Shown here: in pieces, positions 41,760 to 64,000 of the stretch
How positions within the stretch are numbered: position 1 is the stretch's first letter
How the letters are laid out: each line of letters starts with the position of its first letter
Source: Patescibacteria group bacterium
Lineage (GTDB): Bacteria > Patescibacteriota > Patescibacteriia > Veblenbacterales > UBA10138
Reading direction: 5' to 3'
Length of the DNA stretch: 64,000 bases
NCBI GenBank assembly: GCA_041648575.1
Contig: JBAZOT010000006.1
Span: 11,893-75,892, forward strand
Translations under genes and position numbers: made by a program
The notes under the pieces: model-generated
The model's database searches: none
What the model saw: the letters and a program-made list of their open reading frames with translations, nothing else
Told to the model about the DNA's origin: nothing

Positions 41760-41832
41760 AAATACTGCTAATATTATATCATACTTTCTAATTCGCGCGA
41801 ATTAGAAAGTATACTTGTATAATAATAATTCT

Positions 41833-41910: not shown

Positions 41911-41919
41911 TAATGAATG

Positions 41920-42750: not shown

Positions 42751-42796
42751 CCAATTATAAATTTAAATGTAAAAATCAAAATTAAAAATTAATTTT

Positions 42797-44227: not shown

Positions 44228-44232
44228 AAATA

Positions 44233-44721
44233 TTATTTAGTTATGGAACTACTTATTCTTCTTCGTTTCCCATACCAACCTATAACAGCAGTACCTGCAA
44301 GTACACCCACGCCAACTAGACTATAAAGTATTGTATTAGACCTTGTACTTTGGGTAGGGCCATTTCCCGACGGACAATATTGTGGCCTTCCTTCACGGGG
44401 TTTACACGTGTAGTTCAAAGTAACCTCTTTATAACCCGAAGGACACTTTTGGCTATCAGTAGATTTCCACGTCCATGGTTTATCGCACTGAGTACATTCA
44501 TCTCCTTCAGAAAACCAGGCACACTCTTTTGTTAAATTATTAACAATATACTGAATTTGTGCAGTAGTACCATATGTTATCCGCGGAATAATTAACAATG
44601 ACGAAACCAGAACGGCAAAAGAAATGAATTTACATATGCGCGACTGACCCTTATTTATAGCTTCGGTAATAAAAATACGATTCATAAATAGTTTAATAAA
44701 GTTTAATCCAATACTTGACAA
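44233..44721 (-). CDS. Cys-rich membrane/secreted protein whose 5' end contains an in-frame copy of the aspS N-terminus (MNRIFITEAINKGQSR)
   Basis: Internal Met at 44685 starts the aspS-like block, followed by a signal-like helix (ICKFISFAVLVSSLLIIP), 8 Cys and a C-terminal TM (LVGVGVLAGTAVIGWYG). Confidence 0.4.
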   Translation of the reverse strand: MSSIGLNFIKLFMNRIFITEAINKGQSRICKFISFAVLVSSLLIIPRITYGTTAQIQYIVNNLTKECAWFSEGDECTQCDKPWTWKSTDSQKCPSGYKEVTLNYTCKPREGRPQYCPSGNGPTQSTRSNTILYSLVGVGVLAGTAVIGWYGKRRRISSSITK

Positions 44722-44775
44722 CCCTATACACTATGCTACTATATTAGTATCACTATGAAAAAGACCCTGATAAGG

Positions 44776-45282
44776 TTAGTCCTTATTGGGGGCTTTTTCT
44801 ATTACTTTCCGAATTTCTAGTTTAGCACGCTGGGTGGCAAGATATACTATCGGGATATTAAGTTTACGCAGCAAAAAAGAGCATTTCATATTAGGCGATA
44901 CCAAACAACGAAATGTACCGCGCTCTTTAAGAAACTTTACCAACCCAGCATAATCCCCATCGCTTGATACTAATACTGCTTGCTCAAATCGTTTCTCATA
45001 AAAATCCGTCGTAACTTTAAGCACCAACTCAGCATCACAATTGCCTTTTACTCTGCCAGCACCATCATAAGTTACCTCTTTATACACCAAAGTATAGCCA
45101 GCTTCTTGTAAACTAGTGTACAAATCTTTATTCTGTGAAATTAATCCAATAAACAAATAAACCGTGTCTACGCCGTATTTATCATTGAGCCAGACTCTAA
45201 AACGCGCATAATCCAAACCCCAACCAAGGTCATGAACACCTTTGTGCAAATTAGCAGCGTCTATGTAAGCGTTTACTTTCAT
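44776..45282 (-). CDS. NYN/LabA-like domain protein (putative RNase)
   Basis: MKVNAYIDAANLHKG...VYLFIG...VLVSSDGDYAGLV (NYN acidic residues pattern). 168 aa. Confidence 0.65.
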   Translation of the reverse strand: MKVNAYIDAANLHKGVHDLGWGLDYARFRVWLNDKYGVDTVYLFIGLISQNKDLYTSLQEAGYTLVYKEVTYDGAGRVKGNCDAELVLKVTTDFYEKRFEQAVLVSSDGDYAGLVKFLKERGTFRCLVSPNMKCSFLLRKLNIPIVYLATQRAKLEIRKVIEKAPNKD

Positions 45283-45288
45283 AATTAA

Positions 45289-45369
45289 TTAACTTGCATT
45301 CACCCAGCCCTTGAGTAAAGCCTCTTTCCCTTCCTTATTTATAGCTTCGTTAATAAAAATGCGTTTCAT
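45289..45369 (-). CDS. 26-aa upstream ORF copying the aspS N-terminus (MKRIFINEAINKEGKEALLKGWVNAS), ending 7 bp before the NYN gene
   Basis: Conserved block CCTTATTTATAGCTTCGTTAATAAAAATGCGTTTCAT. Confidence 0.4.
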   Translation of the reverse strand: MKRIFINEAINKEGKEALLKGWVNAS

Positions 45370-45377
45370 AAATAATG

Positions 45378-46811
45378 TTAGTTAGCTGGTGACCGGACTG
45401 GCTTAAATATTGGCTCTACTAATTTTACTAGTGGCGCGTTTTGCAGTTTACAAATCCATCCTAACTCTTGTCCTTGAGGTGTACTCACAACGACACCATA
45501 AGCTGGACCTCCTGGCATATAAATGGACGAATACGATAACCCCAGCGAGTCTAGCCATACCCGAGCAGAAGCTTCAGTAGTTCCGTCTTTAAATGAAACC
45601 TGTAGCTTACCTGGCTCGTATACTTTCGTAAAGCCATCAGGTGTTGTAACGTCAAAATTGACATACCGTTTTTTCCATTCATTTATACAGGCCGATATAT
45701 CTGGAGTAGAAGAGTTAGAGCTCGTTTCATCAATAAATTGGACAATTTTACAAGCACCTACAGCACATTTAGTGGGAAAGTACTGAATACAGCTCTCCGC
45801 AGTCGGGGGCGGTAACTCCGGACATGCGACTCCTGGGGTTAGCTGTTTTTTGAGTTGCACCTGCTTGGCGCGCTCTTGATTATAAGCTGGCAGGTAACTT
45901 CGATTAATTGCATTAGTTGGACAATTATTTTGGCACACATCGTTGAGTGCGTAAACCGCCGTGCAGTCACTGTCCTGTGTACACTGATACCAGCCTGCAT
46001 TGCTGGCACTTGTAAGTGGCTCAATAAATTTGAAGGTGGAGAGGATTTGGTTATAAATTTTTTGATATTTCTCAAGTTCATTTCCTGAGGGACCACTTCC
46101 ATATGTGCTAGAAAGTTTCCCATCAATATAATTTCTTGTACCTCCGTCGAAAATGATCGAATATTGTTTCCCATTTTTTACAAAGCTGGTTTGAGTGCAT
46201 TCTTCTGACCAACAACCAATACTCAAGTCTCCCTTAAGTTTATATTGGGACGCTTGTTCTCCTGCCACTGAAAGTATTTTTTCAGCACTAGCTAGCGTTC
46301 CGTATTGCCATCCAGGATTATCTATTACAACAGATACGTTATAAAAATATTTGTTCGTAACTTTAGAGTTGGGAATGGCCACCCCAGCTGTTTCCGCGCT
46401 CTCAAACTCGGCATATATATCTCCAGAATCAGAATTGATAATTTTCCATTCAGATGGATACTTCACCTCAAACCCATACTGCTCATTGCGGTAGGTTTGC
46501 CAGATGGAAGTATCAACATCGGCATTTTCTTCCATTGGCTGCCATCCACTCCTAAAACCCCTACCACACACCTCTTCAAAAGTTTTACCCTCTGGAATAA
46601 CATCACACATAGCAATACCACATGACTTACCGGTTGCCTGCTCACACTCTTCCTGAGATAAATATGTTTGCGGTGCTATACGCACGGCGTCGGGTGACTC
46701 TTTATTTTGATACTGCTTTTCCAAAAGCACGCTACAGCCAGCGGCTATGAATAAAATAAACAACACAGCAATAACTGTGATGACTGATGAATTGAGATAA
46801 TGGTTTTTCAT
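45378..46811 (-). CDS. Lipoprotein, YRNEQYGF-repeat family (paralog 3), Cys-rich
   Basis: Lipobox IAAGCS, WQTYRNEQYGFEVKYPSEW, more than 20 Cys. 477 aa. Confidence 0.5.
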   Translation of the reverse strand: MKNHYLNSSVITVIAVLFILFIAAGCSVLLEKQYQNKESPDAVRIAPQTYLSQEECEQATGKSCGIAMCDVIPEGKTFEEVCGRGFRSGWQPMEENADVDTSIWQTYRNEQYGFEVKYPSEWKIINSDSGDIYAEFESAETAGVAIPNSKVTNKYFYNVSVVIDNPGWQYGTLASAEKILSVAGEQASQYKLKGDLSIGCWSEECTQTSFVKNGKQYSIIFDGGTRNYIDGKLSSTYGSGPSGNELEKYQKIYNQILSTFKFIEPLTSASNAGWYQCTQDSDCTAVYALNDVCQNNCPTNAINRSYLPAYNQERAKQVQLKKQLTPGVACPELPPPTAESCIQYFPTKCAVGACKIVQFIDETSSNSSTPDISACINEWKKRYVNFDVTTPDGFTKVYEPGKLQVSFKDGTTEASARVWLDSLGLSYSSIYMPGGPAYGVVVSTPQGQELGWICKLQNAPLVKLVEPIFKPVRSPAN

Positions 46812-46880
46812 ATTGATAGTTTCCTATTTAGGCAAGTAAGAAAGTATTTTATTACTATTTGTTAAGAGTTGTCTTTTTGG

Positions 46881-47019: not shown

Positions 47020-48309
47020 TTATGGTCTTAATCTATTTAATAATCTTGGGAAAGGGATGGTTTCACGAACATGAGCTAGTCCGCAGATCCATGCTACCAC
47101 ACGTTCCAAGCCAACACCAAAACCCGAATGCGGCACGCTGCCATATTTTCTTAAATCCAAATACCACTGAAATGGCTCTATGGGTAATTTGTGTTCTTTC
47201 ATGCGTTTTAGCAACTCATCATAATCATCTTCACGCTGGCTACCACCAATAATTTCGCCATAACCTTCGGGCGCTAATAAATCAGCGTTTAAAACGCGCG
47301 TAGGATCTTTAGGATCGCGCTTCATATAAAAAGCTTTAACTTCGCTTGGATATTTTTCCACAAAAATTGGTTTGTCGTACATTTTAGTTAAAATAGTTTC
47401 ATCATCTGCGCCTAAATCATCATTATCTTTAATATCACTCCCCTGCTCGCGTAATTTCTTAATAGCTTCAGTATGAGTAATTCTATAAAACGGCGGTTTG
47501 ATATTTTGCAAAGGTTTAAGATCACGCTCTAAAATTTCCAGCTCTTTTTTATTATCAGTCAAAACTTTGTTAACTATAAAACTGATTAAATTTTCCTGAA
47601 TAATTAAATTTTCTTCGTGCTCCACAAAAGCCGCTTCGGCATCCATCATCCAAAATTCCGTTAAATGCCTGCGAGTCTTGGATTTTTCTGCACGAAAAGT
47701 AGGACCAAAATCAAACACCCGTCCAAATGAAGCAATAGCTGCTTCTAAATAAAGCTGGCCTGATTGGGTAAGGTAAGCTGGTTCGTCAAAATAATCAATC
47801 TTGAAAAGTGTGGTAGTGCCTTCGCAAGAAGTGGGTGTTAAAATCGGCGAATCAATTTTAATAAAACCTTCACTATTTAAATGTTCATAAATTGCATTGA
47901 TAATAGTATTGCGGACGCGTTGAATTGCCCATTGTTTAGGCGACCTAAGCCACAAATGGCGATGATCCAACAAAAAATCAGGCCCGTGCTCTTTTTTACC
48001 AATAGGATATTCCCCGGCTTTTTGTACTAAAGTCAGACTTTTGGCTTGCAATTCGTATTCATCTTTTTTAGGATGTTTAGAAATTACTCCGGAAACTATG
48101 ATAGATGATTCTAAAGTTATACTTTGGGCTATTTGCCAGGATTTTTTATCTACTTCTTGCTCACTGACCACCACCTGCACCCAACCTTGGCCGTCACGCA
48201 ACTCAATAAAGTAAATTTTACCAGAGGAGCGGACATTGCTAGCCCAACCGCGTAAAGCCACTTCCTGCCCTGTAAAATCCTTTAAATTATCAGTAAAAAT
48301 ATATTTCAT
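47020..48309 (-). CDS. asnS: Asparaginyl-tRNA synthetase
   Basis: Class IIb aaRS: N-terminal OB (VALRGWASNVRSSGKIYFIELRDG), motif 2 FGPTFRAEKSKTRRHLTEFWMMDAE, motif 3 GSVPHSGFGVGLERVV. 429 aa. Confidence 0.9.
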   Translation of the reverse strand: MKYIFTDNLKDFTGQEVALRGWASNVRSSGKIYFIELRDGQGWVQVVVSEQEVDKKSWQIAQSITLESSIIVSGVISKHPKKDEYELQAKSLTLVQKAGEYPIGKKEHGPDFLLDHRHLWLRSPKQWAIQRVRNTIINAIYEHLNSEGFIKIDSPILTPTSCEGTTTLFKIDYFDEPAYLTQSGQLYLEAAIASFGRVFDFGPTFRAEKSKTRRHLTEFWMMDAEAAFVEHEENLIIQENLISFIVNKVLTDNKKELEILERDLKPLQNIKPPFYRITHTEAIKKLREQGSDIKDNDDLGADDETILTKMYDKPIFVEKYPSEVKAFYMKRDPKDPTRVLNADLLAPEGYGEIIGGSQREDDYDELLKRMKEHKLPIEPFQWYLDLRKYGSVPHSGFGVGLERVVAWICGLAHVRETIPFPRLLNRLRP

Positions 48310-53685: not shown

Positions 53686-53892
53686 ATGGCTAAAGAACTA
53701 GAGTTTGATCCAACAATGGGATCGTTTGAAGACCATCTTAAAGTGTTGGAACAAAGAATTAGTAGTGTTGAAGCTGAACTTGAAGCGGCAAAAACAAATA
53801 ATAATGCGGAATTAATAACAGAAGCTGAAGAAAGATTAGTAAAATTAAACGAGGAAAAGGAAAATTTTATAAAACAAAATCAGGCTGCATAA
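53686..53892 (+). CDS. Small coiled-coil protein (68 aa)
   Basis: E/A/L/K-rich heptads, own promoter-like AT-rich upstream. Confidence 0.3.
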   Translation: MAKELEFDPTMGSFEDHLKVLEQRISSVEAELEAAKTNNNAELITEAEERLVKLNEEKENFIKQNQAA

Positions 53893-53984
53893 TAAGGCCA
53901 AACAGCTTAATTAGCTTTTTTTATTAGCGCACTATAACACACGCCTAACTTTTTGATAAAAAAATTGCTCTCTACCTATCTCCC

Positions 53985-54176
53985 GAGCTCTGGGGGTGGA
54001 CTCGAACCCTGAACCAGATGTCGCTTCGCTCTATCGGTACAGGGCAAAGCCAGCAACATTCCTGCCTATGCCAAGCAGATGTATTAATACCGTACAAATC
54101 CTCTCGGGGGAGGATTCGAACCTCCAACATCCCTGCCTGCGGCAGACAGGTGCATTAACCCATCTACCTCGACAAG
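53985..54176 (-). pseudogene. Two tandem tRNA-Asn 3'-end-like fragments (att-like scars). The middle one has a perfect T-arm and acceptor 3' strand but no matching 5' acceptor strand.
   Basis: Plus-strand CTCTGGGGGTGGACTCGAACCC (53987-) and CTCTCGGGGGAGGATTCGAACCTCC (54091-) versus the tRNA-Asn 3' end CTCTGGGGGCTGGGATCGAACC (54177-). Confidence 0.45.
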
Positions 54177-54249
54177 CTCTGGGGGCTGGGATCGAACCAG
54201 CGACCTCTCCGTTAACAGCGGAGCGTTCTACCAATTGAACTACCCCAGA
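54177..54249 (-). tRNA. tRNA-Asn (anticodon GTT), no encoded CCA
   Basis: Acceptor TCTGGGG/CCCCAGA, D GTTC/GAAC, anticodon stem CTCCG/CGGAG, loop CTGTTAA, T-arm GCTGG-TTCGATC-CCAGC. Confidence 0.8.
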
Positions 54250-54313
54250 GCTCGAGAGATAGATTTGTATTTTTCTCACGATCGTTATAAAAATACAAAT
54301 GGATTATTAATCA

Positions 54314-54346
54314 AAAAAACCGGTCGCTTTATGGGACCGGTTTTTA
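54314..54346 (-). terminator. Hairpin terminator (bidirectional-looking) downstream of the 54499-54906 gene
   Basis: AAAAAAACCGGTCGCTTTATGGGACCGGTTTTT. Confidence 0.55.
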
Positions 54347-54498
54347 AATATGTAAAAATACCAGTCCCTAGTGCCGGTTATTATTGTTCTGTAGAGAAAC
54401 TTTTATCATACAATTTAATTGTAGCGCTGATTTAGATTTTTGTCAAATAAAAAACCTGACGAGTTTTTGCCAGGCTTATTTACAAACTTCATTTTTTA

Positions 54499-54906
54499 TC
54501 AATCAATAATAAGTGCTTCTGTAACAATATATTCTAAGTCACTAAACTCCCAACCACCGCGATCATTGTTGCGTTTTATTTTTTTTAATGATAAACGCTG
54601 TATTATATCCTGTTTACAGTAATCGCCCATTCCCGGCGGACAGATAACAATAATTGGAAATTGAGTATCAACTTTTCTGACTGCTTCTAAAAATTTTAAA
54701 TCGTCTGAACCTAATGGAAACAATCTATTGGCCTCGTATATAAAAAATTTATAGCCCTTACCTAATATTGGATATATCGCATATGGCTCATCCCCTTTCC
54801 TTTCTTCCGCTGGTTCACAACCTAAATTATACAAACATTTTTTCAATTCATGCAAAAAATGTGGTTCACTGTCAAACCCAAAAATGGCGACCTTGTATTG
54901 ATTCAT
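54499..54906 (-). CDS. Hypothetical protein
   Basis: 135-aa ORF. No motif recognised (not a canonical receiver domain). Confidence 0.35.
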   Translation of the reverse strand: MNQYKVAIFGFDSEPHFLHELKKCLYNLGCEPAEERKGDEPYAIYPILGKGYKFFIYEANRLFPLGSDDLKFLEAVRKVDTQFPIIVICPPGMGDYCKQDIIQRLSLKKIKRNNDRGGWEFSDLEYIVTEALIID

Positions 54907-55004
54907 GATTCCCTCACTGATTTATTGGTTGATAAATAATTTAAAGAACAAAATTATGGGTATACCTTATACCATATATAAATTAGTGTCAACAGATTCC
55001 AAAA

Positions 55005-55541
55005 TTAAATAGTAGGATTCTGGTTTTGAATTTTATACGTGAAATTCTTGCCTAATATTCGCTTGATCCACCAACCAACAATCAAAGCTACTAAAAAAAT
55101 TGCTGCACCAATAAAGCACGGGGTAATAAAAGGATTAGTTACTAATTGACCAGAACAACCAATAGTCGGTTCTCCATGGCTCAACCAAAATTTATACAAG
55201 GTATAACTAAAATTCCCCCAAGCAAATAAAGTGCTGGCTATTAACAGCCAGACCAAACGCTTCTGCTGTATTTTTTTCTTATCATCTAAAAATTTAATAA
55301 TATATAGCGACCAAATAAAACCAATCAAAAACGCGAACGCACCATAAAAACACGGCGTGGTAACTGGATTAGGGATGATACAATCCTGAACTTTAAACAA
55401 TGTCCCCTCTACTGCATAAAAACGAGCAAAATCAACATATACCGTATACCAGGCAAATATTGTTCCAATTAATAAAACAACTGACTGAAGCTGAAATAAT
55501 TTTTTCATATGTGATTCACTATAAATCGAAAAAAGGTTCAA
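55005..55541 (-). CDS. Membrane protein with internal duplication (NPVTTPCFYGAFAFLIGF / NPFITPCFIGAAIFLVAL)
   Basis: 178 aa, 4 TM helices, two homologous halves each with a conserved Cys. Confidence 0.4.
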   Translation of the reverse strand: MNLFSIYSESHMKKLFQLQSVVLLIGTIFAWYTVYVDFARFYAVEGTLFKVQDCIIPNPVTTPCFYGAFAFLIGFIWSLYIIKFLDDKKKIQQKRLVWLLIASTLFAWGNFSYTLYKFWLSHGEPTIGCSGQLVTNPFITPCFIGAAIFLVALIVGWWIKRILGKNFTYKIQNQNPTI

Positions 55542-55548
55542 GTCAATG

Positions 55549-58275
55549 CTACTCTGTTTTTAAACTGGACCGCATGAAAAAATGTTTAACCGCTTCTACT
55601 AATATCACTAATAACCCAGCCACAGAAATAATCAATAGCCAATCAAAAAATTTCAGCGCTGTGGTATGTAATACTTGCTGAAAAAATGGCGTATAAATCG
55701 CCACCAACTGCAATAAAAATGCCGCTACTATAGCCATTACTAAATAACGATTGTTCCAACTGCGTTTATGCCAAAAATGATATTTTAATTGCTTACAACT
55801 GATAGCATAAAGCAGCGAGCTTACCACCATCATAGTAAATATAATAGTACGAGCGTGCTCGGGACTATCAGTTATGCGTAACATATATAAAAATAAAAAT
55901 AGTGCTCCTAAACCCCGAATTACACTCATAAAGCCAATTAAAAATTTGCGTTGAAAATTTAATATTGGCTCCGTAAGTTTGATTGGTTTTTCTGTCATAA
56001 TTTCAGAACCAGTAGGATCTATGGTAAAAGTTAAAGCAGGAAAACTATCAGTTACTAAATTAATCCATAAAATCTGTGTGGCTAATATGGGCAAAGGAAT
56101 CTCGCGAACTAATAAGGCACCGATAATAAAAGAACCAAATACTAGCACCATTTCCGAAAAACCATCAGACATTAAATATAAAACTAATTTTCTAATATTA
56201 TGAAAAATTACCCGGCCCTCTTCCACGGCTGATACAATAGTTTTAAAATTATTATCCAATAAAACAATATCAGCCGTTTCTTTAGCCACATCCGAGCCCG
56301 AGCCCAATGCCACTCCAATATCAGAACTTTTTAAGGCTGGCGCGTCGTTAACGCCGTCGCCAGTCATAGCTACCACTTCACCGTGCGACTGCCAAGCATC
56401 AACAATTCGTGGTTTGTCATGTGGAGTAGTGCGCGCAAAAACAGTAATTCCGTAAATTCGCTGCCGTAAGGCTGCATCATCCAAACTGGCCAGTTCCTGA
56501 CCATCCAAAATATTTTCTGGCTCAGCCGGCATACCCAATTCCCTAGCAATAGCCTGAGCTGTGCGTTTATGATCCCCAGTTATCATTACCACCTTAATTC
56601 CCGCTGCCCTAGCCTGCTCCAGTGTTTGTTTTACCCCCTCGCGCAATGGGTCTTTAATACCAACAAATCCCAAAAAAGAAAATTGTGATTGCCAATCTGA
56701 AATTTTTGAAATTTGAGTAAATTTTTTATTTATTTTTCGCGAAGCTAAAGCTAACAACCGTAAACCTTGACTGCTGGATTGCTCAATTTTTTTTGCTATT
56801 TTTTTTCTAGTGAGTGCAGATAAATGATGTTGTTTACCATGAGTATGATAAAAATTACAAAACTCCAACACAATTTCTGGCGCGCCTTTTAAATATAACT
56901 CGTGTTCGCTTTTGGGAATCTGGTGCAGCGTCATCATATACTTAGTTGAAGAGGAAAAAGGAATTTCGTCTAATCGCTTATATTGATGTCGCAATTCCAC
57001 AATTGGTATGCCAGCTTGCACCCCAGCTAATACCAAAGCGCGCTCAGTTGGATTGCCAATTACCCGCCAATTGGTTAATTCGTCATGGGGATTTTCTATA
57101 TAAGCATCACTAGCTAATACGCCAACTTTGAGTAGGGCTAGAGCCGAGCTGCCATCTTGAATTTTTGCTAATTGAGATTCTGACTCTTGATCTTCGGTAT
57201 ACAGCCAAGCAACCTGCATTTCGCCAGTAGTTAAAGTGCCGGTTTTGTCGGTACAAATAACCGTGGTAGAACCCAAGGTTTCAGCTGCTAATAATTCCCG
57301 CACTAAGGCCTGCTTTTTTAAAATGCGCCGCATGCCTAAAGCCAAAATTACTGTGACTGCTACTACCATGCCCTCGGGCACTGCCGCCACAGCTATAGCA
57401 ATTGCGGTGGTAAACATTTGTACCGGGGCAAAGCCCAATAAAATTCCAAACAAGAAAATAATCAAACACGATGACAACACCACCAAACTAATCAACCGCC
57501 CTAAGTGACTTAATTTTTTTTGCAAAGGTGTTGCCTCTCTTTTTGTTTCGGTTAATAACTTAGCAATTTTTCCCATTTCTGTTCCCAACCCAGTAGCCAC
57601 TACCACTGCCCTGGCACCGCCAGCCACTACCGATGTTCCCATATAAACCATATTTAATCTTTCGGCAATTACTGTTCCAGGCAGTAATTCTTTAACTTGT
57701 TTAGTTAAAGGTGCAGATTCACCTGTTAACACTGCCTCGTTGGTTTCCAAATTATAAGCAGTAATTAAATGAGCATCAGCTGGCACGCGGTCGCCATCTT
57801 GCAATTCAATAACATCGCCAACGGCCAACTGGGAAGCTAGAATAGTGCGCTCTTCTCCGCTCCTAATTACCTTGGCTTGATAGCTAACAATTTTTTTTAA
57901 TTCCGACAGCGCCTTTTCCGCTTTACGTTCCTGAAAAAATCCCACCACCACATTAATTACCACAGCAGCCAAAATTACCCCGGCGTCAGTATGCTCGCCT
58001 AATAAAAATGTAATCACTGCGGCTACTACCAAGATATTAATTAGCACTCCGGAAAATTGTCTAATTAATATTTTATATAGCGGCGTCTGAGGAGTTGATG
58101 GTAATTCATTGGGGCCGAATCTGGATAAACGAAGAGTCGCTGCTTCTGGTTTTAAACCTTGAGGGCTAGTTTCTAATAATTTAAAAATCTTAGTCAAGCT
58201 TAAAACGTGCCACAAAGGTTCAGTTAAATTTGGTGCCAGATGAGCCATATAATTACTTATAATTATACCAAACAA
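55549..58275 (-). CDS. P2-type cation-transporting ATPase (Ca2+/Mg2+-type)
   Basis: TGES (LTGESAPL), ICTDKTGTLT, PEGMVVAVTV (PEGL-like), VAMTGDGVNDAPAL. N-terminal LSRFGPNEL. 908 aa, 10 TM helices. Confidence 0.85.
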   Translation of the reverse strand: MFGIIISNYMAHLAPNLTEPLWHVLSLTKIFKLLETSPQGLKPEAATLRLSRFGPNELPSTPQTPLYKILIRQFSGVLINILVVAAVITFLLGEHTDAGVILAAVVINVVVGFFQERKAEKALSELKKIVSYQAKVIRSGEERTILASQLAVGDVIELQDGDRVPADAHLITAYNLETNEAVLTGESAPLTKQVKELLPGTVIAERLNMVYMGTSVVAGGARAVVVATGLGTEMGKIAKLLTETKREATPLQKKLSHLGRLISLVVLSSCLIIFLFGILLGFAPVQMFTTAIAIAVAAVPEGMVVAVTVILALGMRRILKKQALVRELLAAETLGSTTVICTDKTGTLTTGEMQVAWLYTEDQESESQLAKIQDGSSALALLKVGVLASDAYIENPHDELTNWRVIGNPTERALVLAGVQAGIPIVELRHQYKRLDEIPFSSSTKYMMTLHQIPKSEHELYLKGAPEIVLEFCNFYHTHGKQHHLSALTRKKIAKKIEQSSSQGLRLLALASRKINKKFTQISKISDWQSQFSFLGFVGIKDPLREGVKQTLEQARAAGIKVVMITGDHKRTAQAIARELGMPAEPENILDGQELASLDDAALRQRIYGITVFARTTPHDKPRIVDAWQSHGEVVAMTGDGVNDAPALKSSDIGVALGSGSDVAKETADIVLLDNNFKTIVSAVEEGRVIFHNIRKLVLYLMSDGFSEMVLVFGSFIIGALLVREIPLPILATQILWINLVTDSFPALTFTIDPTGSEIMTEKPIKLTEPILNFQRKFLIGFMSVIRGLGALFLFLYMLRITDSPEHARTIIFTMMVVSSLLYAISCKQLKYHFWHKRSWNNRYLVMAIVAAFLLQLVAIYTPFFQQVLHTTALKFFDWLLIISVAGLLVILVEAVKHFFMRSSLKTE

Positions 58276-58331
58276 TCATCATCTTAGAAATTGTAATCAA
58301 CTGGAGTTAACTAACTGTTTGTTGCAGAAAG

Positions 58332-59327
58332 TTGACAAATTATTGTATACTAAAATCAAACAACTTCTTATTTATGCTAACTTATTTTCTTTTTGTCATT
58401 GGTTTTGTAATCTTAATTAAGGGCGCGGATTGGTTAGTAGACGGCGCTTCATCAGTTGCTAAAAAATTTGGTATTTCCACGCTGGTAATTGGTTTAACAG
58501 TGGTAGCTTTTGGCACTTCGGCACCCGAATTAATTGTAAACATCTTGGCTAGCATTAACGGGAATTCTGACATTGCTATTGGTAATATTTTAGGCAGCAA
58601 TATTTGTAATATCTTGCTAATCTTAGGTATAGCGGCAATCATCTATCCGCTAACAGTCAAGCGAGGTACAGTTTGGAAAGAAATACCCCTAGCATTGCTG
58701 GCTGTTATCGCAGTAGCTTTAATGGCTAATGATATTTTTATTGAAGGAGGTGGCTGGTCGGGCTTAACTCGGATTGACGGCTTAATATTATTAGCATTTT
58801 TCCTAATCTTTTTGTATTATGTTTTTGAAATCAGCAAAACCGGCCAGTCAAACGATACAAAAATAAAAAATTATTCACTTCTGATCTCGTTAAGTATGAT
58901 AGCAGGTGGATTAGTCAGTCTTACCCTGGGCGGTAAATGGGTAGTAGATGGGGCAGTGGCTATTGCTCAGACTTTTAATATTAGTGAGGCGCTAATTGGT
59001 TTAACTATCGTGGCTATTGGCACCAGTTTACCTGAACTAGCTACTTCAGCAGTAGCTGCTTATAAACATAACTCGGACATTGCCGTAGGAAATATTGTTG
59101 GTTCAAATATTTTTAATATTTTTTGGATCTTAGGTTTAAGCGCTGTCATTAGGCCGCTGCCATTTTCGGAAGCATTAAATACCGATGTTCTGGTAACTAT
59201 GATTGCTACCATACTTTTATTCATGGTAATGTTCGTTGGAAAAAAACACACGCTTGAACGCTGGCAAGGCGTAACGTTTGTAATAATCTATATTATTTAT
59301 ATTGTTTACTTAATTTACCGCGGCTGA
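58332..59327 (+). CDS. Ca2+/cation antiporter, CaCA family (second paralog)
   Basis: Alpha-repeats GTSAPELIVNI and GTSLPELATS. 331 aa. Divergent from the P-type ATPase, a plausible Ca2+ homeostasis pair. Confidence 0.75.
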   Translation: MTNYCILKSNNFLFMLTYFLFVIGFVILIKGADWLVDGASSVAKKFGISTLVIGLTVVAFGTSAPELIVNILASINGNSDIAIGNILGSNICNILLILGIAAIIYPLTVKRGTVWKEIPLALLAVIAVALMANDIFIEGGGWSGLTRIDGLILLAFFLIFLYYVFEISKTGQSNDTKIKNYSLLISLSMIAGGLVSLTLGGKWVVDGAVAIAQTFNISEALIGLTIVAIGTSLPELATSAVAAYKHNSDIAVGNIVGSNIFNIFWILGLSAVIRPLPFSEALNTDVLVTMIATILLFMVMFVGKKHTLERWQGVTFVIIYIIYIVYLIYRG

Positions 59328-59489
59328 AAAAAACCGAATTTTTAGGCTCGGCCAATATTTGTTCTGTGGCCGCGACCTGGTGGATGATACGGAGCGTTAA
59401 TTTGCCGCTTGGTGTTTTCTGATTTTCTAACCTTAAAAGCCGACGGCGTCCTATACCGCGTCATTTGTTTATTTGATTTACCTGCATAA

Positions 59490-59921
59490 TTACGCATTGA
59501 ATTTTTCCTTTAGCAATCGTGTTAATTTATTAAAAATCTCTTGATTAACTTCATTTACTTTATCTAACTCTGGCGCAACAGGCCAACCAGCATCTTTAAA
59601 TACCGTGCCAGCGAATTCTTTACTTTCCGAATAACGCGGTATTACATGAAAGTGAACCTCGGGATCTACCATCATTAACATTAAATAATTAATTTTTTCG
59701 TAACTAAAAAGTTCCTTTATCTTTGTTTCAATTTCTGGAATTATCTGATTTAATTCACAAAACGCCTTTGACGAAATATCTGACCAGTTATTAACCCCTT
59801 CGCGACAAATTAAAATCAATGAACCCAGTGTTACTTGCTTGGGTCTAACCAAAACCCGCCAATGTTTATATTCTTTAACCAAAGTCTCCGGATAGCCAAA
59901 TTTTTTAAGTGTTACTAACAT
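59490..59921 (-). CDS. HIT-family (histidine triad) hydrolase/transferase
   Basis: HFHVIPR histidine-triad motif. Start placed at internal MMLVTL because the upstream 13 codons of the ORF-track model are translated from a tRNA-Lys 3'-end-like scar. Confidence 0.6.
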   Translation of the reverse strand: MLVTLKKFGYPETLVKEYKHWRVLVRPKQVTLGSLILICREGVNNWSDISSKAFCELNQIIPEIETKIKELFSYEKINYLMLMMVDPEVHFHVIPRYSESKEFAGTVFKDAGWPVAPELDKVNEVNQEIFNKLTRLLKEKFNA

Positions 59922-59945
59922 CATATATATAAATGGTGGATCTGG

Positions 59946-59972
59946 AGGGAATTGAACCATTTTAAGGCAAAA
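59946..59972 (-). repeat. Degenerate copy of the tRNA-Lys 3' end (att-like scar), 1.7 kb downstream of tRNA-Lys
   Basis: TGGTGGATCTGGAGGGAATTGAACCA versus tRNA-Lys TGGTGGGTCTGGAGGGAATCGAACCC (24/26). Confidence 0.55.
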
Positions 59973-60233
59973 TGGTAATCTCCAATAAACACGAGATAAA
60001 TTGCTAATGGTAGCTGAAAAACAGATTCTCAGTTACTATCAGCTCTAATCAGATTTTATCACATTTCATCACTTCTTGGGCAACCGGTGGGCAACACTGG
60101 GGAAGTGGTGAGGTGGTACTAAAAACAAAAACGATCCCCTTTTAGTATTAAGGTCTATGGGATACCGTGCTGGAGTTTTGTGGTTGGTTTGAAAAATTTA
60201 GACAACAGCCCAGCAACACTGGGGAGGTGATGA

Positions 60234-60605
60234 TTAATTCGTGATGCAAATTTCTGACATTCTGGCAACTAAATAGACCATTATAACAACTAGAGCAAGA
60301 TTTACTAATTGATAGAAGCCCGTTAGCCATAGATTAATTCGATCAAACTTTCCATTAGGAGCTTTTTCATATCGCGCTTTTAACCTTCCTCTAAAGTCCT
60401 TAATAGCATGCCTAAATACAAGCCCGACACACGAATATAAGAAAATTGTTAAAAATATTTGTAGTTGCCCCCCTTGGAAAACAAAAGCAAATATTAGAAG
60501 GATAGTAGCAATAAAAAAAAGTATAAAATAAGGAGGCTCTTTAAGAAGAGCAACTAGATAATCCATAAATTTATTGAGCCAACCTTGATTTTGTATTGTT
60601 TCCAT
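60234..60605 (-). CDS. Small membrane protein (in the tRNA-Lys islet)
   Basis: 123 aa, 3 TM helices. Flanked by AACACTGGGG(A/G)(A/G)GTG direct repeats at about 60096, 60213 and 60667. Confidence 0.35.
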   Translation of the reverse strand: METIQNQGWLNKFMDYLVALLKEPPYFILFFIATILLIFAFVFQGGQLQIFLTIFLYSCVGLVFRHAIKDFRGRLKARYEKAPNGKFDRINLWLTGFYQLVNLALVVIMVYLVARMSEICITN

Positions 60606-60700
60606 ATCTTCGTATTACACCCAAAAAGGGAATTAGTAAAGGTTAATAAAAAACCAACTAGTAACACTGGGGGGTGGTTGTAATAAGTTTCCAATATTAT

Positions 60701-61456
60701 TTATGTTTTCACTTCACCAATCTTCGTTTCTTTTCGTTTTTGGTAGTCATCTATTAGCTCCGGATAGTGTATTGGGGCGGGTATTCTTGTTGTAGTAAGG
60801 TCTGGGTAAATTTGGTTCATAACAAATAATTTATTATTTTCATTGTAGGAAATCAATATTTGACCTTCGTTTTGTAAATTCAATTTAACAAGCGAATCGT
60901 GTAACTCCTCAAAATTAACATCTGATATGTCACCGCCAGTTTGAAGAGTTATCAATAGATTTATATGACCTAATTTATTACCATAATGATGCATTTTTTT
61001 CTTTATAAATGTGAGTAGTTCGACGGTGTCGATTTTTTCTCTATATCTCTTAAGTTGAAACAACCTAATCTCGCCTTGTGATATGATGCCAAAGTCGATG
61101 GGTGTTTTCTTTTCCAAAATACTAAGTAAATCTTCAATGGTGTTAATTTTATATTTATTAAGATTAATACTATTTTTTATTTCCAGGCAAATTTTTCCAG
61201 CATCGTCATAATACTTTAGATAAATATAAAAAGCGACAAATAGCTCCGTTTCATCATTATTTATTTGCAACATGTCCGAAATTGCACCAGAAAATTCTAT
61301 CATTTTTTGTTTATCATCGGATAAATCATTAAGGCTGAGTCCCCGTTTTTTTAATGCGGCATCCAATAATATAAATGCCTTTTGTCGAAATAATACCTCA
61401 TATTCACTTTTACTAATGCAAATAAAATTTTTATCTAACGATTTTAAAGAATACAT
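60701..61456 (-). CDS. Hypothetical protein (in the tRNA-Lys islet)
   Basis: 251-aa ORF. No motif recognised. Confidence 0.35.
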   Translation of the reverse strand: MYSLKSLDKNFICISKSEYEVLFRQKAFILLDAALKKRGLSLNDLSDDKQKMIEFSGAISDMLQINNDETELFVAFYIYLKYYDDAGKICLEIKNSINLNKYKINTIEDLLSILEKKTPIDFGIISQGEIRLFQLKRYREKIDTVELLTFIKKKMHHYGNKLGHINLLITLQTGGDISDVNFEELHDSLVKLNLQNEGQILISYNENNKLFVMNQIYPDLTTTRIPAPIHYPELIDDYQKRKETKIGEVKT

Positions 61457-61688
61457 AGCTTATTTTCTCAATTCTAGACATATTATTTTCCCGCCATAAA
61501 AATCTTCCCTCGGACGAAGCCTAATTACTTTATTGTTTTCATCTACTTGGATATTCATCTCTGACATGCAATTATTCTAGCATATTCGGAATAAAACCAC
61601 CCTCATCAGGTGGTCAGCACCCTTTCACCACCATAATTGATAAATTAAAAATCAGCCCATTAATATTGGGCAGAATAATTATCTCTAG

Positions 61689-61763
61689 TGGTGGGTCTGG
61701 AGGGAATCGAACCCTCGACGCTCGGCTTAAAAGGCCGACGCTCTACCTCTGAGCTACAGACCC
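61689..61763 (-). tRNA. tRNA-Lys (anticodon TTT), CCA encoded
   Basis: Acceptor GGGTCTG/CAGACCC, D GCTC/GAGC, anticodon stem TCGGC/GCCGA, loop CTTTTAA, T-arm GAGGG-TTCGATT-CCCTC. Confidence 0.85.
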
Positions 61764-61833: not shown

Positions 61834-62367
61834 TCAAGCCCGCTTACTGATGGGTAAATCCAATAAAGTAAACAATAATTGTCTGGTAACATCCACATCA
61901 GCCATGGCGCGGTGGGCTTTGGGTTGAGGTATGTTAAAATGACGCGCTAAATAAGCCAAACTATAGCTCGCTACAGCCACTTTGCTTCTAGCTAATTCTA
62001 ATGTATCTAATGTCGAATTAGCCACCCTCGGCAATCCTAAATCTTTTAAATGTTTATTAATAAATCCTAAATCAAAACCAATATTATGAGCCACTAAAGT
62101 TGCGCCAGTTGAGAACAAAATAAACGCCGGAATCACTTCAATTAATAGTTTACCTTGTTCAGCCACCACTTTATTGGAAATACCATGCACTGCTTCAGCT
62201 TCTTTATCTATTTTTACGCCCGGATTTACAATAGTCTCAAACACATCAACAATCTGGCGAGAATGAATCCGCTGGGCTGCTAACTCCACAATGGCATGGC
62301 CTTCATCTGGTTTCATACCAGTGGTTTCTACATCAAATATTACATAATCAGTATCATCATTAAACAT
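61834..62367 (-). CDS. DnaQ-like 3'-5' exonuclease (DEDDh family)
   Basis: YVIFDVETTGMKP (Exo I), ...VAHNIGFDLGFI (Exo II), ...HRAMADVDVT (Exo III with His). 177 aa. Confidence 0.7.
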   Translation of the reverse strand: MFNDDTDYVIFDVETTGMKPDEGHAIVELAAQRIHSRQIVDVFETIVNPGVKIDKEAEAVHGISNKVVAEQGKLLIEVIPAFILFSTGATLVAHNIGFDLGFINKHLKDLGLPRVANSTLDTLELARSKVAVASYSLAYLARHFNIPQPKAHRAMADVDVTRQLLFTLLDLPISKRA

Positions 62368-62438
62368 GATTTGACGGTAGCGGATTTTTTGATAGTTGTC
62401 TAGTTTTTTGTGGTAGTTATTTATAATTTTTATTTTTG

Positions 62439-62486
62439 TTAGGGGTAGAGGGCTCGGAGTTGCGAAGCCCGCCCTCTACCCCTAAC
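62439..62486. repeat. Palindromic element GTTAGGGGTAGAGGG...CCCTCTACCCCTAAC (copy 2)
   Basis: 15-bp stem, loop CTCGGAGTTGCGAAGCCCG. See copy 1 at 39183-39231. Confidence 0.5.
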
Positions 62487-62489
62487 TAC

Positions 62490-62760
62490 CCCACACCCGG
62501 CACGCTTTTTAGGGAACGCCAAAGCGCGGACAAACGGACGTGCTATGCAAAGATTACAACAACACGCACGTTCTGAGGCCCGCGCAATGGCGTTTATTAA
62601 TTTAAAATATGCCACCATAGCGAGGGTAAGCTAACGGCGTGGAACCGGAGCAAGCAAAATAGTAGCCGCGTGTCGTGCCCTTGCAGCATAGCGGCTACCG
62701 TGAGCTACGGTAACGCCGTCTTGCTCGAAGCTCTAGGTGGCGATTTTTCCCACCACTTTT
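62490..62760 (+). ncRNA. GC-rich, highly structured ~270-nt segment upstream of dnaB ending in a hairpin+T-run. Candidate ncRNA or leader of unknown class.
   Basis: Perfect helices GTAGCCGC/GCGGCTAC, CCGT-GAGCT-ACGG, AACGGCGT/ACGCCGT and GAGCAAGC/GCTTGCTC in a crossing (pseudoknot-like) arrangement. Terminal GGTGGCGATTTTTCCCACC+ACTTTTTC. No RNase P, SRP or 6S signature recognised by eye. Confidence 0.35.
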
Positions 62761-62870
62761 TCTAAAAAAGTGGTGAAAAGTATTGTGGACAAAACGTGTG
62801 AAAAAGGTGTATTTAATCACCCTTGCTTTTAAACTTTCAAAAAGTTAAACTAAATCCACTTGCTTACTAT

Positions 62871-64000
62871 ATGCTCAATATAACCGAAAAACTACCGCCC
62901 CAGAACTTAGAAGCTGAAGCCTCAACTTTGGGTTCTTTATTAATAGATAAAGACGCTATTGTAAAAGTGGCTGACATTTTGGAGCCAGTAGATTTTTATA
63001 ATGATAACAATGGGCAAATTTATCAATCAATGGTGGAATTGTATGAGGATCGTACACCAATTGATGTTTTAAGCTTGGGTAGTAAGCTTTCAGAAAAGGG
63101 AATTTTAGAAGCCATTGGTGGTCACACTTATTTAACCGAGTTAACCAACTCTGTGCCTACTGCCAGCAATGTGGTGCATTATGCTAAAATTGTTCAACGC
63201 AAAAGCACGCTTAGAAAATTATTACGTTCGGCCAGTGAAATTTCTTCTTTAGCTTACCAAGAAAGCGATGATGTGGAAGAAGTGCTAGACAAAGCCGAAA
63301 GCAAATTGTTCAGTGTTTCACAAAAATTCTATAAACAAGTATTTATTCCCATTAAATCTGTTTTAACCGATGCTTTTGACCGTATAGATGACTTGCATAA
63401 AGGAAGTGGGAAACTTAGGGGTATAGCCACTGGTTTTACAGACTTAGATAATTTGTTAGCAGGTTTGCAAAGATCAGATTTTGTTGTACTAGCCGCCCGA
63501 CCTTCAGTTGGTAAAACCACCTTGGCTCTTGATATTGCTCGCCATGTGGCTATAAAAAATAAAATTCCCGTAGGTATATTTAGCTTAGAAATGTCCAAAG
63601 AGCAATTAGTGGATAGATTATTATGCTCTGAAGCGAATGTTGATTTATGGCGCATGCGCACTGGTAAACTATCTGACAAGGAAGATGATTTTCCGCGCAT
63701 CGGCCATGCCATGGGCGTACTTTCTGAAGCGCCGATTTTCATTGATGATTCAGCTACGGCCAATATTATGGAAATTCGCACTAAAGCCAGGCGACTGCAA
63801 TCTGAACACGGTGTCGGGCTCTTATTAATAGATTATCTACAGTTATTAGAAGGACGGAATACTGATAATCGCGTACAAGAAGTTTCAGAAATAACCAGGG
63901 GTTTAAAAGCTATTGCCCGCGAACTTAATGTGCCGGTGCTAGCTTTATCACAACTGGCGCGTGCTGTAGAAATGAGTAAACCAGCTATACCAAAACTCTC
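62871..64000 (+). CDS. dnaB: Replicative DNA helicase DnaB (N-terminal ~376 codons; continues past the window end)
   Basis: My own translation from ATG 62871: MLNITEKLPPQNLEAEASTLGSLLIDKDAI (DnaB N-domain) ... ARPSVGKTTLALDIARHVA (Walker A) ... GLLLIDYLQL (Walker B). No stop in the window, hence absent from the ORF track. Confidence 0.9.
   Translation, partial: MLNITEKLPPQNLEAEASTLGSLLIDKDAIVKVADILEPVDFYNDNNGQIYQSMVELYEDRTPIDVLSLGSKLSEKGILEAIGGHTYLTELTNSVPTASNVVHYAKIVQRKSTLRKLLRSASEISSLAYQESDDVEEVLDKAESKLFSVSQKFYKQVFIPIKSVLTDAFDRIDDLHKGSGKLRGIATGFTDLDNLLAGLQRSDFVVLAARPSVGKTTLALDIARHVAIKNKIPVGIFSLEMSKEQLVDRLLCSEANVDLWRMRTGKLSDKEDDFPRIGHAMGVLSEAPIFIDDSATANIMEIRTKARRLQSEHGVGLLLIDYLQLLEGRNTDNRVQEVSEITRGLKAIARELNVPVLALSQLARAVEMSKPAIPKL

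Follow-up and report, generated by a model that had tools for sequence, protein, structure and literature searches.

Working tRNA genes, dead tRNA copies and small palindromes in a Patescibacteria contig

What are the partial tRNA copies that lie beside several intact tRNA genes in a contig of a Patescibacteria (Parcubacteria-type) metagenome-assembled genome (MAG)? We analyzed a 64-kb stretch of this contig as a whole (the window; coordinates without a locus prefix refer to it). Displaced fragments of this kind are routinely taken for the footprints that integrase-driven islands leave, and they serve to map such islands; an earlier, sequence-only reading explained the fragments next to tRNA-Asn, tRNA-Thr(GGT) and tRNA-Lys as scars of one family of integrating elements that was later deleted down to its ends, with a sequence shared by the Asn and Thr scars as the common element end. 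The follow-up analysis gives a different answer. At tRNA-Thr(GGT), the scar is half of an older gene that was split and now surrounds the working one; at tRNA-Asn, the scars are a tandem pair of decayed, near full-length tRNA-Asn genes; and the tRNA-Lys locus alone has the look of a classic tRNA-bounded islet, which no longer has a recombinase. The sequences pointed out earlier are real, although some coordinates were slightly off, and the earlier interpretation stands in so far as cognate partial copies flank several tRNAs and the Lys locus has the anatomy of an island, but not with respect to the common element end.

Dead copies of tRNA-Thr(GGT) and tRNA-Asn and the palindromes within them

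ARAGORN and Rfam agree on seven intact tRNAs in the window, all on the minus strand; the ARAGORN run confirmed those for Asn, Lys and Thr(GGT), beside which the scars had been noticed. Within 750 nucleotides (nt) around the intact tRNA-Thr(GGT), exact pieces of this tRNA are arranged colinearly on the minus strand. The pieces upstream of the intact gene tile tRNA positions 1-9, 10-21 and 22-32, and those downstream tile positions 26-34, 34-44, 45-54 and 52-61, followed by a decayed acceptor 3' strand (GCGtgtAACaGCTCC). Because colinear pieces occur on both sides, the intact tRNA-Thr(GGT) sits inside an older, split copy. The previously reported Thr scar exists in the form of GGTTCAAATCtCCGC (35504-35517, minus strand), which corresponds to tRNA positions 52-64 with one extra base, and GGAGATTTGAACCC, the string by which it had been recognized, is the T-loop piece of the old copy. 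The intact gene has a 26-nt leader that pairs with a 9-nt trailer, and it is enclosed by an inverted repeat, CGTCTGCC (35749-35756) and GGCAGATG (35661-35668). A third, scrambled layer lies upstream and holds a second copy of the leader, CGGATGATACGTCTG.

The dead tRNA copies are interrupted by at least 10 GC-rich hairpins of 13-43 nt, including those that separate the Thr pieces (i1 to i6). When folded, each of i1 to i5 is a hairpin; nine folded inserts yielded z-scores from -0.8 to -5.4, most of them at or below -2.7. One of these inserts, i5, is the sequence common to the Asn and Thr scars, the presence of which is confirmed: in a self-BLAST of the window, 54004-54045 and 35513-35554 match over 42 nt with 90.5% identity (E = 1e-8), far beyond chance. 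In both places, i5 is a self-contained imperfect palindrome, and in both the dead Thr and the dead Asn it occupies the same T-stem/T-loop boundary. In both, the flanking tRNA sequences are contiguous in tRNA coordinates. The flanks in the Thr copy are positions 45-54 and 52-61; in the outermost Asn copy (unit 3), one flank is the variable loop with the T-stem 5' strand (AATGTTGCTGG) and the other is TTCGAGTCCACCCCCAGAGC, and the tRNA sequence past i5 reads TTCGAGTCC...CCCCAGAGC. The junctions carry GGT on both sides of i5 in Thr and GG on both sides in Asn, the junction ambiguity of the other hairpin inserts being 0-1 nt. The two copies differ mostly in the hairpin loop.

Filled and empty sites of these hairpins are directly observed. 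The dead tRNA-Thr 3' part of two relatives (L088/L180; relatives' loci are denoted by L numbers) has no i5: after i3, it runs uninterrupted as GGTAAGGAGTAGGTCCGCGGTTCAAATCCGCGCAACGGCTCCA, with the i4, i5 and i6 sites empty, and the i3 site is empty in L080. Given that tRNA sequence lies on both sides and that an empty site exists in a relative, i5 is an insertion into tRNA-like sequence rather than the edge of an island; this small palindromic insertion is, in our view, firmly established, and the notion of a common element end is not borne out. A homologue of i5 in the Kerfeldbacteria MAG L183 has the same asymmetric arms (CCCYGAACCAGA...TCGGTACAGGGC) with a different centre; its site is the variable-loop position of a dead tRNA-Thr, and with respect to this tRNA it is turned the other way round. 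In a scan of viral contigs with the 42-nt palindrome, i2 and the hairpin associated with tRNA-Trp and tRNA-Asn (see below), all 24 matches lacked extended similarity and are attributable to chance.

A second dispersed hairpin family is represented by i1 (CCTGCCTGCCGGTAGGCAGG), which occurs three times in the window (21980-21999, 30044-30063 and 35837-35856), and close variants of which interrupt the dead tRNA-Trp in L078 and L082. One i1 copy is embedded in a larger palindrome (GTCATTGCGAG...CTCGCAATGAC; 21969-22105) between two genes, and therefore palindromes nest within one another. The ends CCCNG(T/A)A... are common to i2, i3, i4 and i5; a pattern scan of approximately 2 Mb of fetched DNA detected 18 such palindromes, 13 of them in or beside the tRNA-Thr nests of this clade. 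Perfect GC-rich hairpins are rare in the window: of 13 altogether, the 750-nt Thr/Tyr region contributes three, and i1 accounts for another two. A hairpin fold, dispersed copies (two of i5, three of i1) and filled and empty sites, three of the features by which mobile palindromic mini-elements are recognized, are present; a cognate transposase (RAYT or IS200-type TnpA) was not found in the 50 of 56 long ORFs covered in the 64-kb window.

The earlier reading listed two tandem copies of the tRNA-Asn 3' end. Both are there (53987-54010 and within 54091-54175), but as parts of near full-length units, not just 3' ends. These units, 2 and 3, adjoin the intact tRNA-Asn head to tail, with zero spacer. 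They come close to the ordinary tRNA gene duplicates that had been named as an outcome adverse to the element scenario, being decayed tandem genes, except that none of the Asn, Lys and Thr copies forms a complete cloverleaf; the best among the scar copies, unit 2, scores 18.5 bits as a tRNA in Rfam, below the cut-off of 29. The last 31 nt of unit 2 (GATGTTGGAGGTTCGAATCCTCCCCCGAGAG) are identical in 30 of 31 positions to the working tRNA-Asn of L007, L008 and L044, whereas the working tRNA-Asn of the window diverges from that of the relatives from the anticodon stem onward. Because the T-arm of unit 2 matches the relatives and the window's own gene differs, unit 2 is the displaced, ancestral-type gene. 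Its D-arm is gone, and its anticodon stem is followed by a CCTG.C...G.CAGG hairpin (54132-54150); unit 3 has a hairpin at the same position (54061-54078) and, in addition, the 42-nt palindrome in its T-arm. Tandem Asn units are present also in L044, with no homology to units 2 and 3 demonstrable beyond the tRNA-like ends.

Nested and replaced copies at other tRNA genes and in related genomes

In the same cluster, a dead 5' part of tRNA-Tyr is separated from the intact tRNA-Tyr by a gene for a GIY-YIG protein of 78 amino acids (aa). The dead part consists of positions 1-23 (exact), a hairpin (35334-35356), positions 25-35, a second hairpin (35303-35322) and TAAATCT, and runs into the start codon of the GIY-YIG gene. 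The protein is a lone PF01541 domain (Pfam E = 8.4e-19) with weak matches to phage homing-endonuclease families, and no second, DNA-binding or targeting domain was found in its 78 aa. L180, L182 and L183 have orthologues (78-88% identity) at this site; in these genomes, the hairpins upstream of the gene are at the same two Tyr positions, 21/22 and 34/35, and the dead Tyr pieces match the tRNA-Tyr of their own genome in each case. Comparison of L088 with L180 shows 100% identity over 2905 nt, up to approximately position 23 of tRNA-Tyr, and about 95% identity beyond; past this switch point, L180 has the dead Tyr piece, the GIY-YIG gene and a new tRNA-Tyr, whereas L088 is without the module. Both variants come from one Joint Genome Institute (JGI) sample. 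The two variants differ cleanly in the presence or absence of the GIY-YIG module, and the switch between them falls within a tRNA gene.

A unit of another design lies downstream of tRNA-Trp: it combines an inverted copy of the T-loop and T-stem 3' strand (GTAGGAATCGAA), two hairpins, and a direct copy of the tRNA-Trp 3' end (GATTCCTACCGCCCCTG). The same design is found at tRNA-Trp in L082, L084 and L088, at tRNA-Asn in L008 and at tRNA-Lys in L005. The left arm of the unit covaries with the local tRNA type, the first hairpin has the form GGGC...GCCC, and the closing copy of the 3' end is exact, with CCA where the gene encodes CCA. By eye, the first hairpin in L084/L082 (Trp) clearly resembles the one in L008 (Asn), and a hairpin of about 50 nt (GGGCGCGAGAAAGAGCC...GAGTGTAGCGCCC) is located beside the Trp fragments of L084 and L082 and the Asn fragment of L008.

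The relatives compared at the Thr locus were found via TpiA, with 55-59% identity to the protein of the window, and retain the gene order tpiA, TPR gene, tRNA-Thr(GGT), tRNA-Tyr, tRNA-Thr(TGT), L33 gene, tRNA-Trp. The nesting recurs among them: split older copies surround the working tRNA-Thr(GGT) in L076, L078/L080/L081, L084, L088/L180, L182 and L183. The nest is incomplete or absent in some relatives (absent in L082, reduced to the 5' part in L084, without i3 in L080), and in L182 the downstream dead unit is repeated in tandem, with 2.5 copies. In L182 and L183, tRNA-Thr(TGT) is nested as well, with the break inside the anticodon, at 35/36; the order is the outer 5' half up to position 35, leader, inner tRNA of a different allele, trailer, which pairs with the leader, and the outer 3' half from position 36, and L183 has three layers. 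Different alleles of the inner and outer copies are evident also in L080, with GCCGATG/CATCGGC inside GCCGTTG/CAACGGC, and in L183, with GCCGATG inside GCCACCT/AGGTGGC; in both genomes, the 5' acceptor strand of a copy matches the 3' acceptor strand of that same copy. An inverted repeat of varying sequence encloses the intact tRNA-Thr(GGT) in the window, L088/L180, L080/L078/L081 and L182/L183, the versions by lineage being CGTCTGCC/GGCAGATG, TCTGTTCA/TGAGCAGA, CCCCGCCACCTC/GAGGTGGCGGGG and ATCCGCCGTC/GACGGCGGAT; no convincing enclosing repeat was seen in L082 and L084. An exact-match survey identified partial cognate copies near many tRNAs of this clade and none near the tRNAs of the Saccharibacteria-labelled loci or the control loci from outside the candidate phyla radiation (CPR).

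Several relatives have, between the L33 gene and tRNA-Trp, a gene for a PF05635 protein ('23S rRNA intervening sequence protein', a small four-helix bundle), which is absent from the window; it is thus a further example of a small gene gained and lost in the tRNA cluster.

The tRNA-Lys islet, other features and source of the window

The displaced tRNA-Lys 3' end, in direct orientation, is real and bounds an islet as described earlier, but lies 12-14 nt away from the position first given (59946-59972) and is identical to the gene in 23 of 25 positions. The insertion is demonstrated by synteny, a check that the sequence-only reading had asked for: the islet is missing in L005, L007 and L008, where the order is exonuclease gene, tRNA-Lys, a spacer of 200-330 nt, a 51-aa gene and a P-type ATPase gene. 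At this spot, an extra 2.2 kb in the window accommodates two open reading frames (ORFs), the Lys copy and the HIT gene; the 1.6 kb that L044 has there are different. The direct repeats noticed in the islet (AACACTGGGG) are present in three exact copies, all within 60093-60672, and no further exact copy exists in the 64 kb. When one mismatch is tolerated, eight matches are found compared to 2.7 expected, and 0 of 100 shuffles reach eight.

The islet ORFs have no recombinase match in Pfam, PHROG or NCBIfam and, more generally, the islet proteins have no sequence match in Pfam, PHROG, NCBIfam or PDB. Only seven homologues of the 251-aa protein were detected in 5.8 billion sequences. One of these, in L186 (2990-4747), is encoded directly after an N6/N4 DNA methyltransferase, between two tRNA-Ser genes, and another is encoded at a distance of 76 nt from a tRNA-Arg; the surroundings of the homologues yielded no displaced tRNA fragments, and no DNA methyltransferase adjoins the 251-aa gene in the window. 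From this gene neighbourhood, a reasonable guess is that the protein is restriction-endonuclease-like cargo. Under the Islander definition, the Lys locus combines an intact tRNA gene with a direct cognate fragment and, alone among these loci, has a foreign interval between the two. A fragment of the required kind is formally present also in the Thr 3' part and in Asn unit 3, where the interval from tRNA to scar is 0-26 nt. The islet ORFs supply no integrase in the interval, and the shared 42 nt do not form an island end on the inner side of the fragment.

The annotated N-terminus of the HIT protein is translated from the Lys copy, as stated earlier: the longest ORF starts with the ATG at 59960-59958 and the first eight codons after it read through the copy; the public gene call on an identical contig has the same start (156 aa), and the HIT domain begins about 25 residues further in. 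In the syntenic region, the relatives have neither the HIT gene (59490-59960, minus strand) nor the Na/Ca exchanger gene (58332-59327) nor the two small ORFs (54499-55541), and the tRNA-Asn of the window precedes the SIMPL gene, which it follows in the relatives. The entire stretch from DnaB to tRNA-Asn has undergone remodelling.

Table 1. Coordinates of the features discussed, in the window unless a locus is given
Feature	Position	Strand	Remarks
Intact tRNA-Thr(GGT)	35670-35744	-	ARAGORN, Rfam
Older tRNA-Thr(GGT), 5' part	35771-35865	-	Three exact pieces (1-9, 10-21, 22-32); i1, i2 between
Older tRNA-Thr(GGT), 3' part	35475-35669	-	Pieces 26-34, 34-44, 45-54, 52-61, decayed acceptor; i3-i6 between
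Scrambled further tRNA-Thr(GGT) layer	35967-36015	-	Positions 23-30, 29-37, 6-13
i1	35837-35856		In dead Thr 5' part
i2	35782-35824		In dead Thr 5' part
i3	35613-35651		In dead Thr 3' part
i4	35567-35601		In dead Thr 3' part
i5 copy 1	35513-35554	.	Between positions 54 and 52 of dead tRNA-Thr(GGT) 3' part
i5 copy 2	54004-54045	.	Between T-stem 5' strand (GCTGG) and T-loop (TTCGAGT), unit 3
i6	35490-35502		In dead Thr 3' part
Intact tRNA-Asn(GTT)	54176-54249	-	ARAGORN, Rfam
Unit 2, decayed tRNA-Asn copy	54091-54175	-	Directly abuts intact gene
Unit 3, second decayed tRNA-Asn copy	53985-54090	-	Paralogue of unit 2
Intact tRNA-Tyr	34946-35031	-
Dead tRNA-Tyr, 5' part	35290-35379	-
GIY-YIG gene, 78 aa	35046-35282	-	Between dead Tyr 5' part and intact tRNA-Tyr
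tRNA-Trp unit	34290-34436	-	Downstream of gene
Trp/Asn/Lys-type units	L084 6138-6250; L082 8036-8176; L088 6444-6622; L008 3600-3700; L005 2085-2205	L008 and L005: -
Nested tRNA-Thr(TGT)	L182 3540-3790; L183 3690-4010
PF05635 gene	L082 6570-6930; L088 5925-6290; L180 3700-4080; L182 4106-4474		Flanked by AGCTATTAGC-type repeats
Intact tRNA-Lys(TTT)	61689-61763	-	ARAGORN, Rfam
Displaced tRNA-Lys 3' end	59934-59958	-	T-loop to CCA; 23/25 identical, direct orientation
Lys islet, 1.7 kb	59959-61688	-	Between tRNA-Lys and displaced copy
Islet ORF, 251 aa	60701-61456	-
Islet ORF, 123 aa	60234-60605	-	Membrane-like
AACACTGGGG repeats	60093, 60215, 60663		In islet
Terminator-like hairpin family	26766-26786, 29989-30016, 31270-31313, 33556-33617, 34260-34303

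Other palindromic sequences of the window include a repeat of about 75 nt, with 84% identity between two copies on opposite strands (62439-62510 and 39159-39246), located in the gap upstream of the exonuclease gene and beside a YbaK-like gene (39243-39710); its core is a long GC-rich palindrome (GTTAGGGGTAGAGG...CCTCTACCCCTAAC) followed by a T-run, without an Rfam match. A family of terminator-like hairpins (AACCACCC..GGGTGGTT / CCGCCCTCATCGGATGG, then T-runs) lies behind several genes. Among the remaining genes are those for a 1298-aa subtilase with Ig-like domains and a C-terminal Hint/pretoxin-HINT domain (9291-13187, minus strand); an Mrr-type restriction endonuclease domain fused to a topoisomerase-type zinc ribbon (28242-28736, minus strand), which adjoins a PIN-domain protein (26829-27431); and paralogous PsbP-like secreted proteins (39834-46811) that include repeated DNA segments (46706-46846 and 40775-40915, 89% identity) and are interleaved with two class II aminoacyl-tRNA synthetase paralogues (42797-44227 and 47020-48309) and an NYN-domain protein.

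The window has a G+C content of 38%, and the presence of a class II tRNA-Tyr and type IV pilin motifs identifies the organism as bacterial. The relatives centred on DnaB are Patescibacteria MAGs labelled Parcubacteria, Veblenbacteria, Uhrbacteria and Kerfeldbacteria; the closest of these (L002-L004 and L009) are on contigs that are too short or non-syntenic for the Lys and Asn loci. Parts of the window recur with 100% identity in two ENA contigs, which come from a single sample, and an NCBI MAG contig encodes proteins identical to those of the window. Exact-protein look-ups returned no match for TpiA (GTG start) or L33, and those for the exonuclease and the GIY-YIG protein matched only the same organism in one ENA sample. 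Rfam was run on the whole window at the gathering threshold and on 35000-35800, 53850-54350 and 62300-63400 at E <= 10; besides the seven tRNAs, these runs gave a sub-threshold tRNA match for Asn unit 2 and noise. Early guesses of tmRNA, RNase P RNA, a group II intron domain V and a GOLLD/ROOL-type RNA were dropped, having no Rfam match. In the 50 of the 56 long ORFs of the window that were covered, no integrase or transposase domain was found, and the relatives' loci yielded no integrase either.

Origin of the nested copies and comparison with known systems

We consider the chances slightly better than even that these loci record serial replacement of tRNA genes, which left dead copies behind, followed by accumulation of palindromes. 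A new tRNA copy would repeatedly replace the working gene by landing inside or directly beside the resident one, the breakpoints being located in the anticodon arm or in one of the two loops, T or D. The old gene would be left as dead pieces, the 5' part upstream and the 3' part downstream, or as whole decayed tandem copies. Small GC-rich imperfect palindromes (13-43 nt) would then accumulate, mostly at loop and junction positions of the cloverleaf, i5 being one such palindrome that presumably entered the same T-stem/T-loop boundary of two different dead tRNAs; the tRNA-Lys locus would be a separate case, an ordinary tRNA-bounded islet. By analogy with yeast GC clusters, repetitive extragenic palindromic (REP) sequences and miniature inverted-repeat transposable elements (MITEs), the hairpins would move at the DNA level, by a structure-directed mechanism. 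For the entry of the tRNA copy, recombination with incoming diverged DNA or with small circular cassettes at the conserved tRNA loops has somewhat less than an even chance; local tandem duplication combined with gene conversion is a doubtful route, and repair of breaks introduced by the resident GIY-YIG nuclease an unlikely one.

Several observations weigh against serial replacement. No enzyme for the entry of tRNA copies or for hairpin movement was identified in the window or in the relatives' loci; the target duplications of the hairpins are just 1-3 nt and ambiguous; and the relatives available are a handful, every one a metagenome assembly. The insert positions 21/22 and 34/35 recur in the dead Thr and the dead Tyr, whereas random colonization predicts otherwise. 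In a comparison of five sequences, 7 of the 15 pairs of the i3 helix show compensatory changes that maintain it, and the stems around the intact tRNA likewise keep their pairing by compensatory changes. Further, i2 is about 84% identical between genomes with 57% identical TpiA, and the window and L088 have identical i3 flanks. The dead pieces and some of the hairpins are thus much better conserved than would be expected of neutral DNA, which points to function or to recent horizontal spread. This conservation, the pairing-preserving changes and the recurrent positions keep two other readings alive. One holds that the split copies, hairpins and stems make up a single conserved precursor RNA, serving as a processing scaffold or as a two-piece tRNA-like RNA once RNase P and RNase Z release the inner tRNA. 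Beyond the i3 pairing, such an RNA would account for the conservation of the layout, i2, the leader and the i3 flanks at 55-59% TpiA identity, for the lineage-varying inverted repeat around the intact tRNA-Thr(GGT), for outer acceptor strands that match each other and not the inner tRNA (L080, L183), and for tRNA-like pieces that track the tRNA-Tyr of their own genome. We nevertheless regard it as distinctly unlikely: the anticodon is interrupted and the outer acceptor 3' strand of the window has decayed, the layout is partly or wholly missing in L082, L084 and L080 and amounts to 2.5 tandem units in L182, the i5-type hairpin occurs at differing sites and in differing orientations, Rfam returns no RNA family at E <= 10 that would fit, and, as palindromes pair by construction, the apparent covariation can stem from hairpin replacement. 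The other reading, to which we give a small but not negligible chance, would have the tRNA genes of this CPR clade act as self-rescuing mobile cassettes with an inverted repeat defined by its structure and not its sequence, which enter an anticodon, D or T loop of the resident cognate gene and thereby split it and take over its function, the palindromes being non-coding passengers of hairpin-into-loop insertion; in a related version, the split halves would re-associate via the flanking stem into a functional two-piece tRNA-like RNA.

The starting model, a single family of integrase-driven islands at Asn, Thr and Lys deleted to their ends, with the 42 nt (CCCTGAACCAGAYGTCGC...ATCGGTACAGGGC) as the common end by attR, appears quite improbable. 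Displaced direct 3' fragments are a hallmark of tRNA-targeted islands (PMC4383910, PMC9897764), the anticodon arm and the T-loop, where the fragments start, are known crossover subsites (PMC4383910), the Lys islet fits, and the hairpin of about 50 nt is common to fragments of two different tRNAs, Trp in L084 and L082 and Asn in L008. However, the 42 nt are flanked by tRNA sequence on both sides and their empty site exists; the Thr and Asn intervals hold at most 26 nt, 5' fragments are found upstream too, in a nested layout, an integrase is found neither in the window nor in the relatives' loci, and the matches to viral contigs are due to chance. A distinctly unlikely alternative, on a par with the precursor RNA, is replacement homing, whereby the GIY-YIG enzyme would cut cognate tRNA genes that are free of the cassette, repair would install the nuclease gene together with a fresh tRNA, and hairpins would destroy the leftover sites. 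Phage T4 SegB is a GIY-YIG homing enzyme that acts in a tRNA gene cluster (PMC2330249); here, too, a GIY-YIG domain protein sits between a dead and a live tRNA-Tyr, with orthologues in L180, L182 and L183 at the same site and with the same two hairpin positions, and the L088/L180 switch inside tRNA-Tyr, with its approximately 5% diverged flank, resembles a co-conversion tract. Yet the protein is a catalytic domain alone, of a very widespread family, without a DNA-binding domain; no such gene is present at the Asn, Lys, Trp and Thr(GGT) copies; and the inner intact tRNA would be a target as well, unless recognition includes flanking sequence. Extremely improbable, finally, are multi-intron tRNA genes, with archaeal-type bulge-helix-bulge or group I introns, and artefacts of metagenome assembly. 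The pieces do tile a complete tRNA, and one insert, between positions 34 and 35, is at the position of the group I intron in cyanobacterial tRNA-Leu. However, a complete working tRNA lies in the middle of the tiling, the inserts are simple hairpins and, at 13-43 nt, too small for a group I core, Rfam finds nothing, and the organism is bacterial; bulge-helix-bulge introns were rejected on inspection of the junctions, which do not have this geometry. The possibility that a disrupted gene is the only source of its tRNA was rejected as well, a complete tRNA with the same anticodon being present inside or beside each disrupted copy. Against artefacts stands the recurrence of the same structures in independent ENA, JGI and GenBank assemblies.

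If serial replacement is the correct explanation, most of the fragments described here are its remains and a preferred landing place of palindromes, a phenomenon that, in reduced AT-rich genomes, has been described so far mainly for organelles. Should the nesting be an active process, it would represent a new route for the turnover and spread of an essential gene and provide a handle on DNA exchange among CPR bacteria. In practice, loci of this kind will mislead gene callers, island finders and the annotation of tRNAs, as the start of the HIT gene illustrates.

Compared to tRNA-targeted islands, among which 5' fragments are known but rare (159 of 3919 islands; PMC4383910), the loci are alike in combining an intact tRNA with a direct-repeat fragment, in fragment starts at the anticodon arm or T-loop, and in tandem fragments, and the Lys islet fits apart from the missing integrase. 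They differ in that there is little or no island between gene and fragment at Thr, Asn and Tyr, that both halves of the old gene flank the new one, that the fragments are interrupted by hairpins, and that an integrase was not found. The case of T4 SegB (PMC2330249) is similar with respect to a GIY-YIG gene in a tRNA cluster, the presence of which differs between near-identical genomes, with one side diverged; in contrast, the protein of the window, known here from sequence, is a 78-aa catalytic domain alone, and its gene lies inside a duplicated tRNA-Tyr, not between genes. The multi-intron, split and permuted tRNAs of archaea and red algae (PMC3218864, PMC4033280, PMC3978253) share with the nests the short exact pieces, the GC-rich inserts and the halves with complementary flanking sequences. 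Unlike those tRNAs, the copies described here belong to a bacterial host, bulge-helix-bulge motifs are not seen, several of the copies are visibly decayed, and the redundant complete tRNA inside makes the split copy unnecessary for decoding.

For the small palindromes, bacterial REP sequences and bacterial interspersed mosaic elements (BIMEs), MITEs and the Rickettsia palindromic elements are further analogues. The closest described analogue of the hairpins of the window is GC42 of yeast mitochondria, a GC-rich hairpin of 42 nt with a 2-nt target duplication (AG) and substitutions mostly in the loops (PMC4478555). Both involve GC-rich imperfect hairpins (about 20-45 nt) in an AT-rich reduced genome, with filled and empty sites, dispersed copies, junction repeats of 2-3 nt (AG in GC42, GG(T) in i5) and substitutions concentrated in the loop. 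In contrast to GC42, the hairpins of the window are concentrated in tRNA-derived sequence, at loop and junction positions of the cloverleaf, and form tiny families, with two or three copies in 64 kb, and homologous hairpins are shared across genera.

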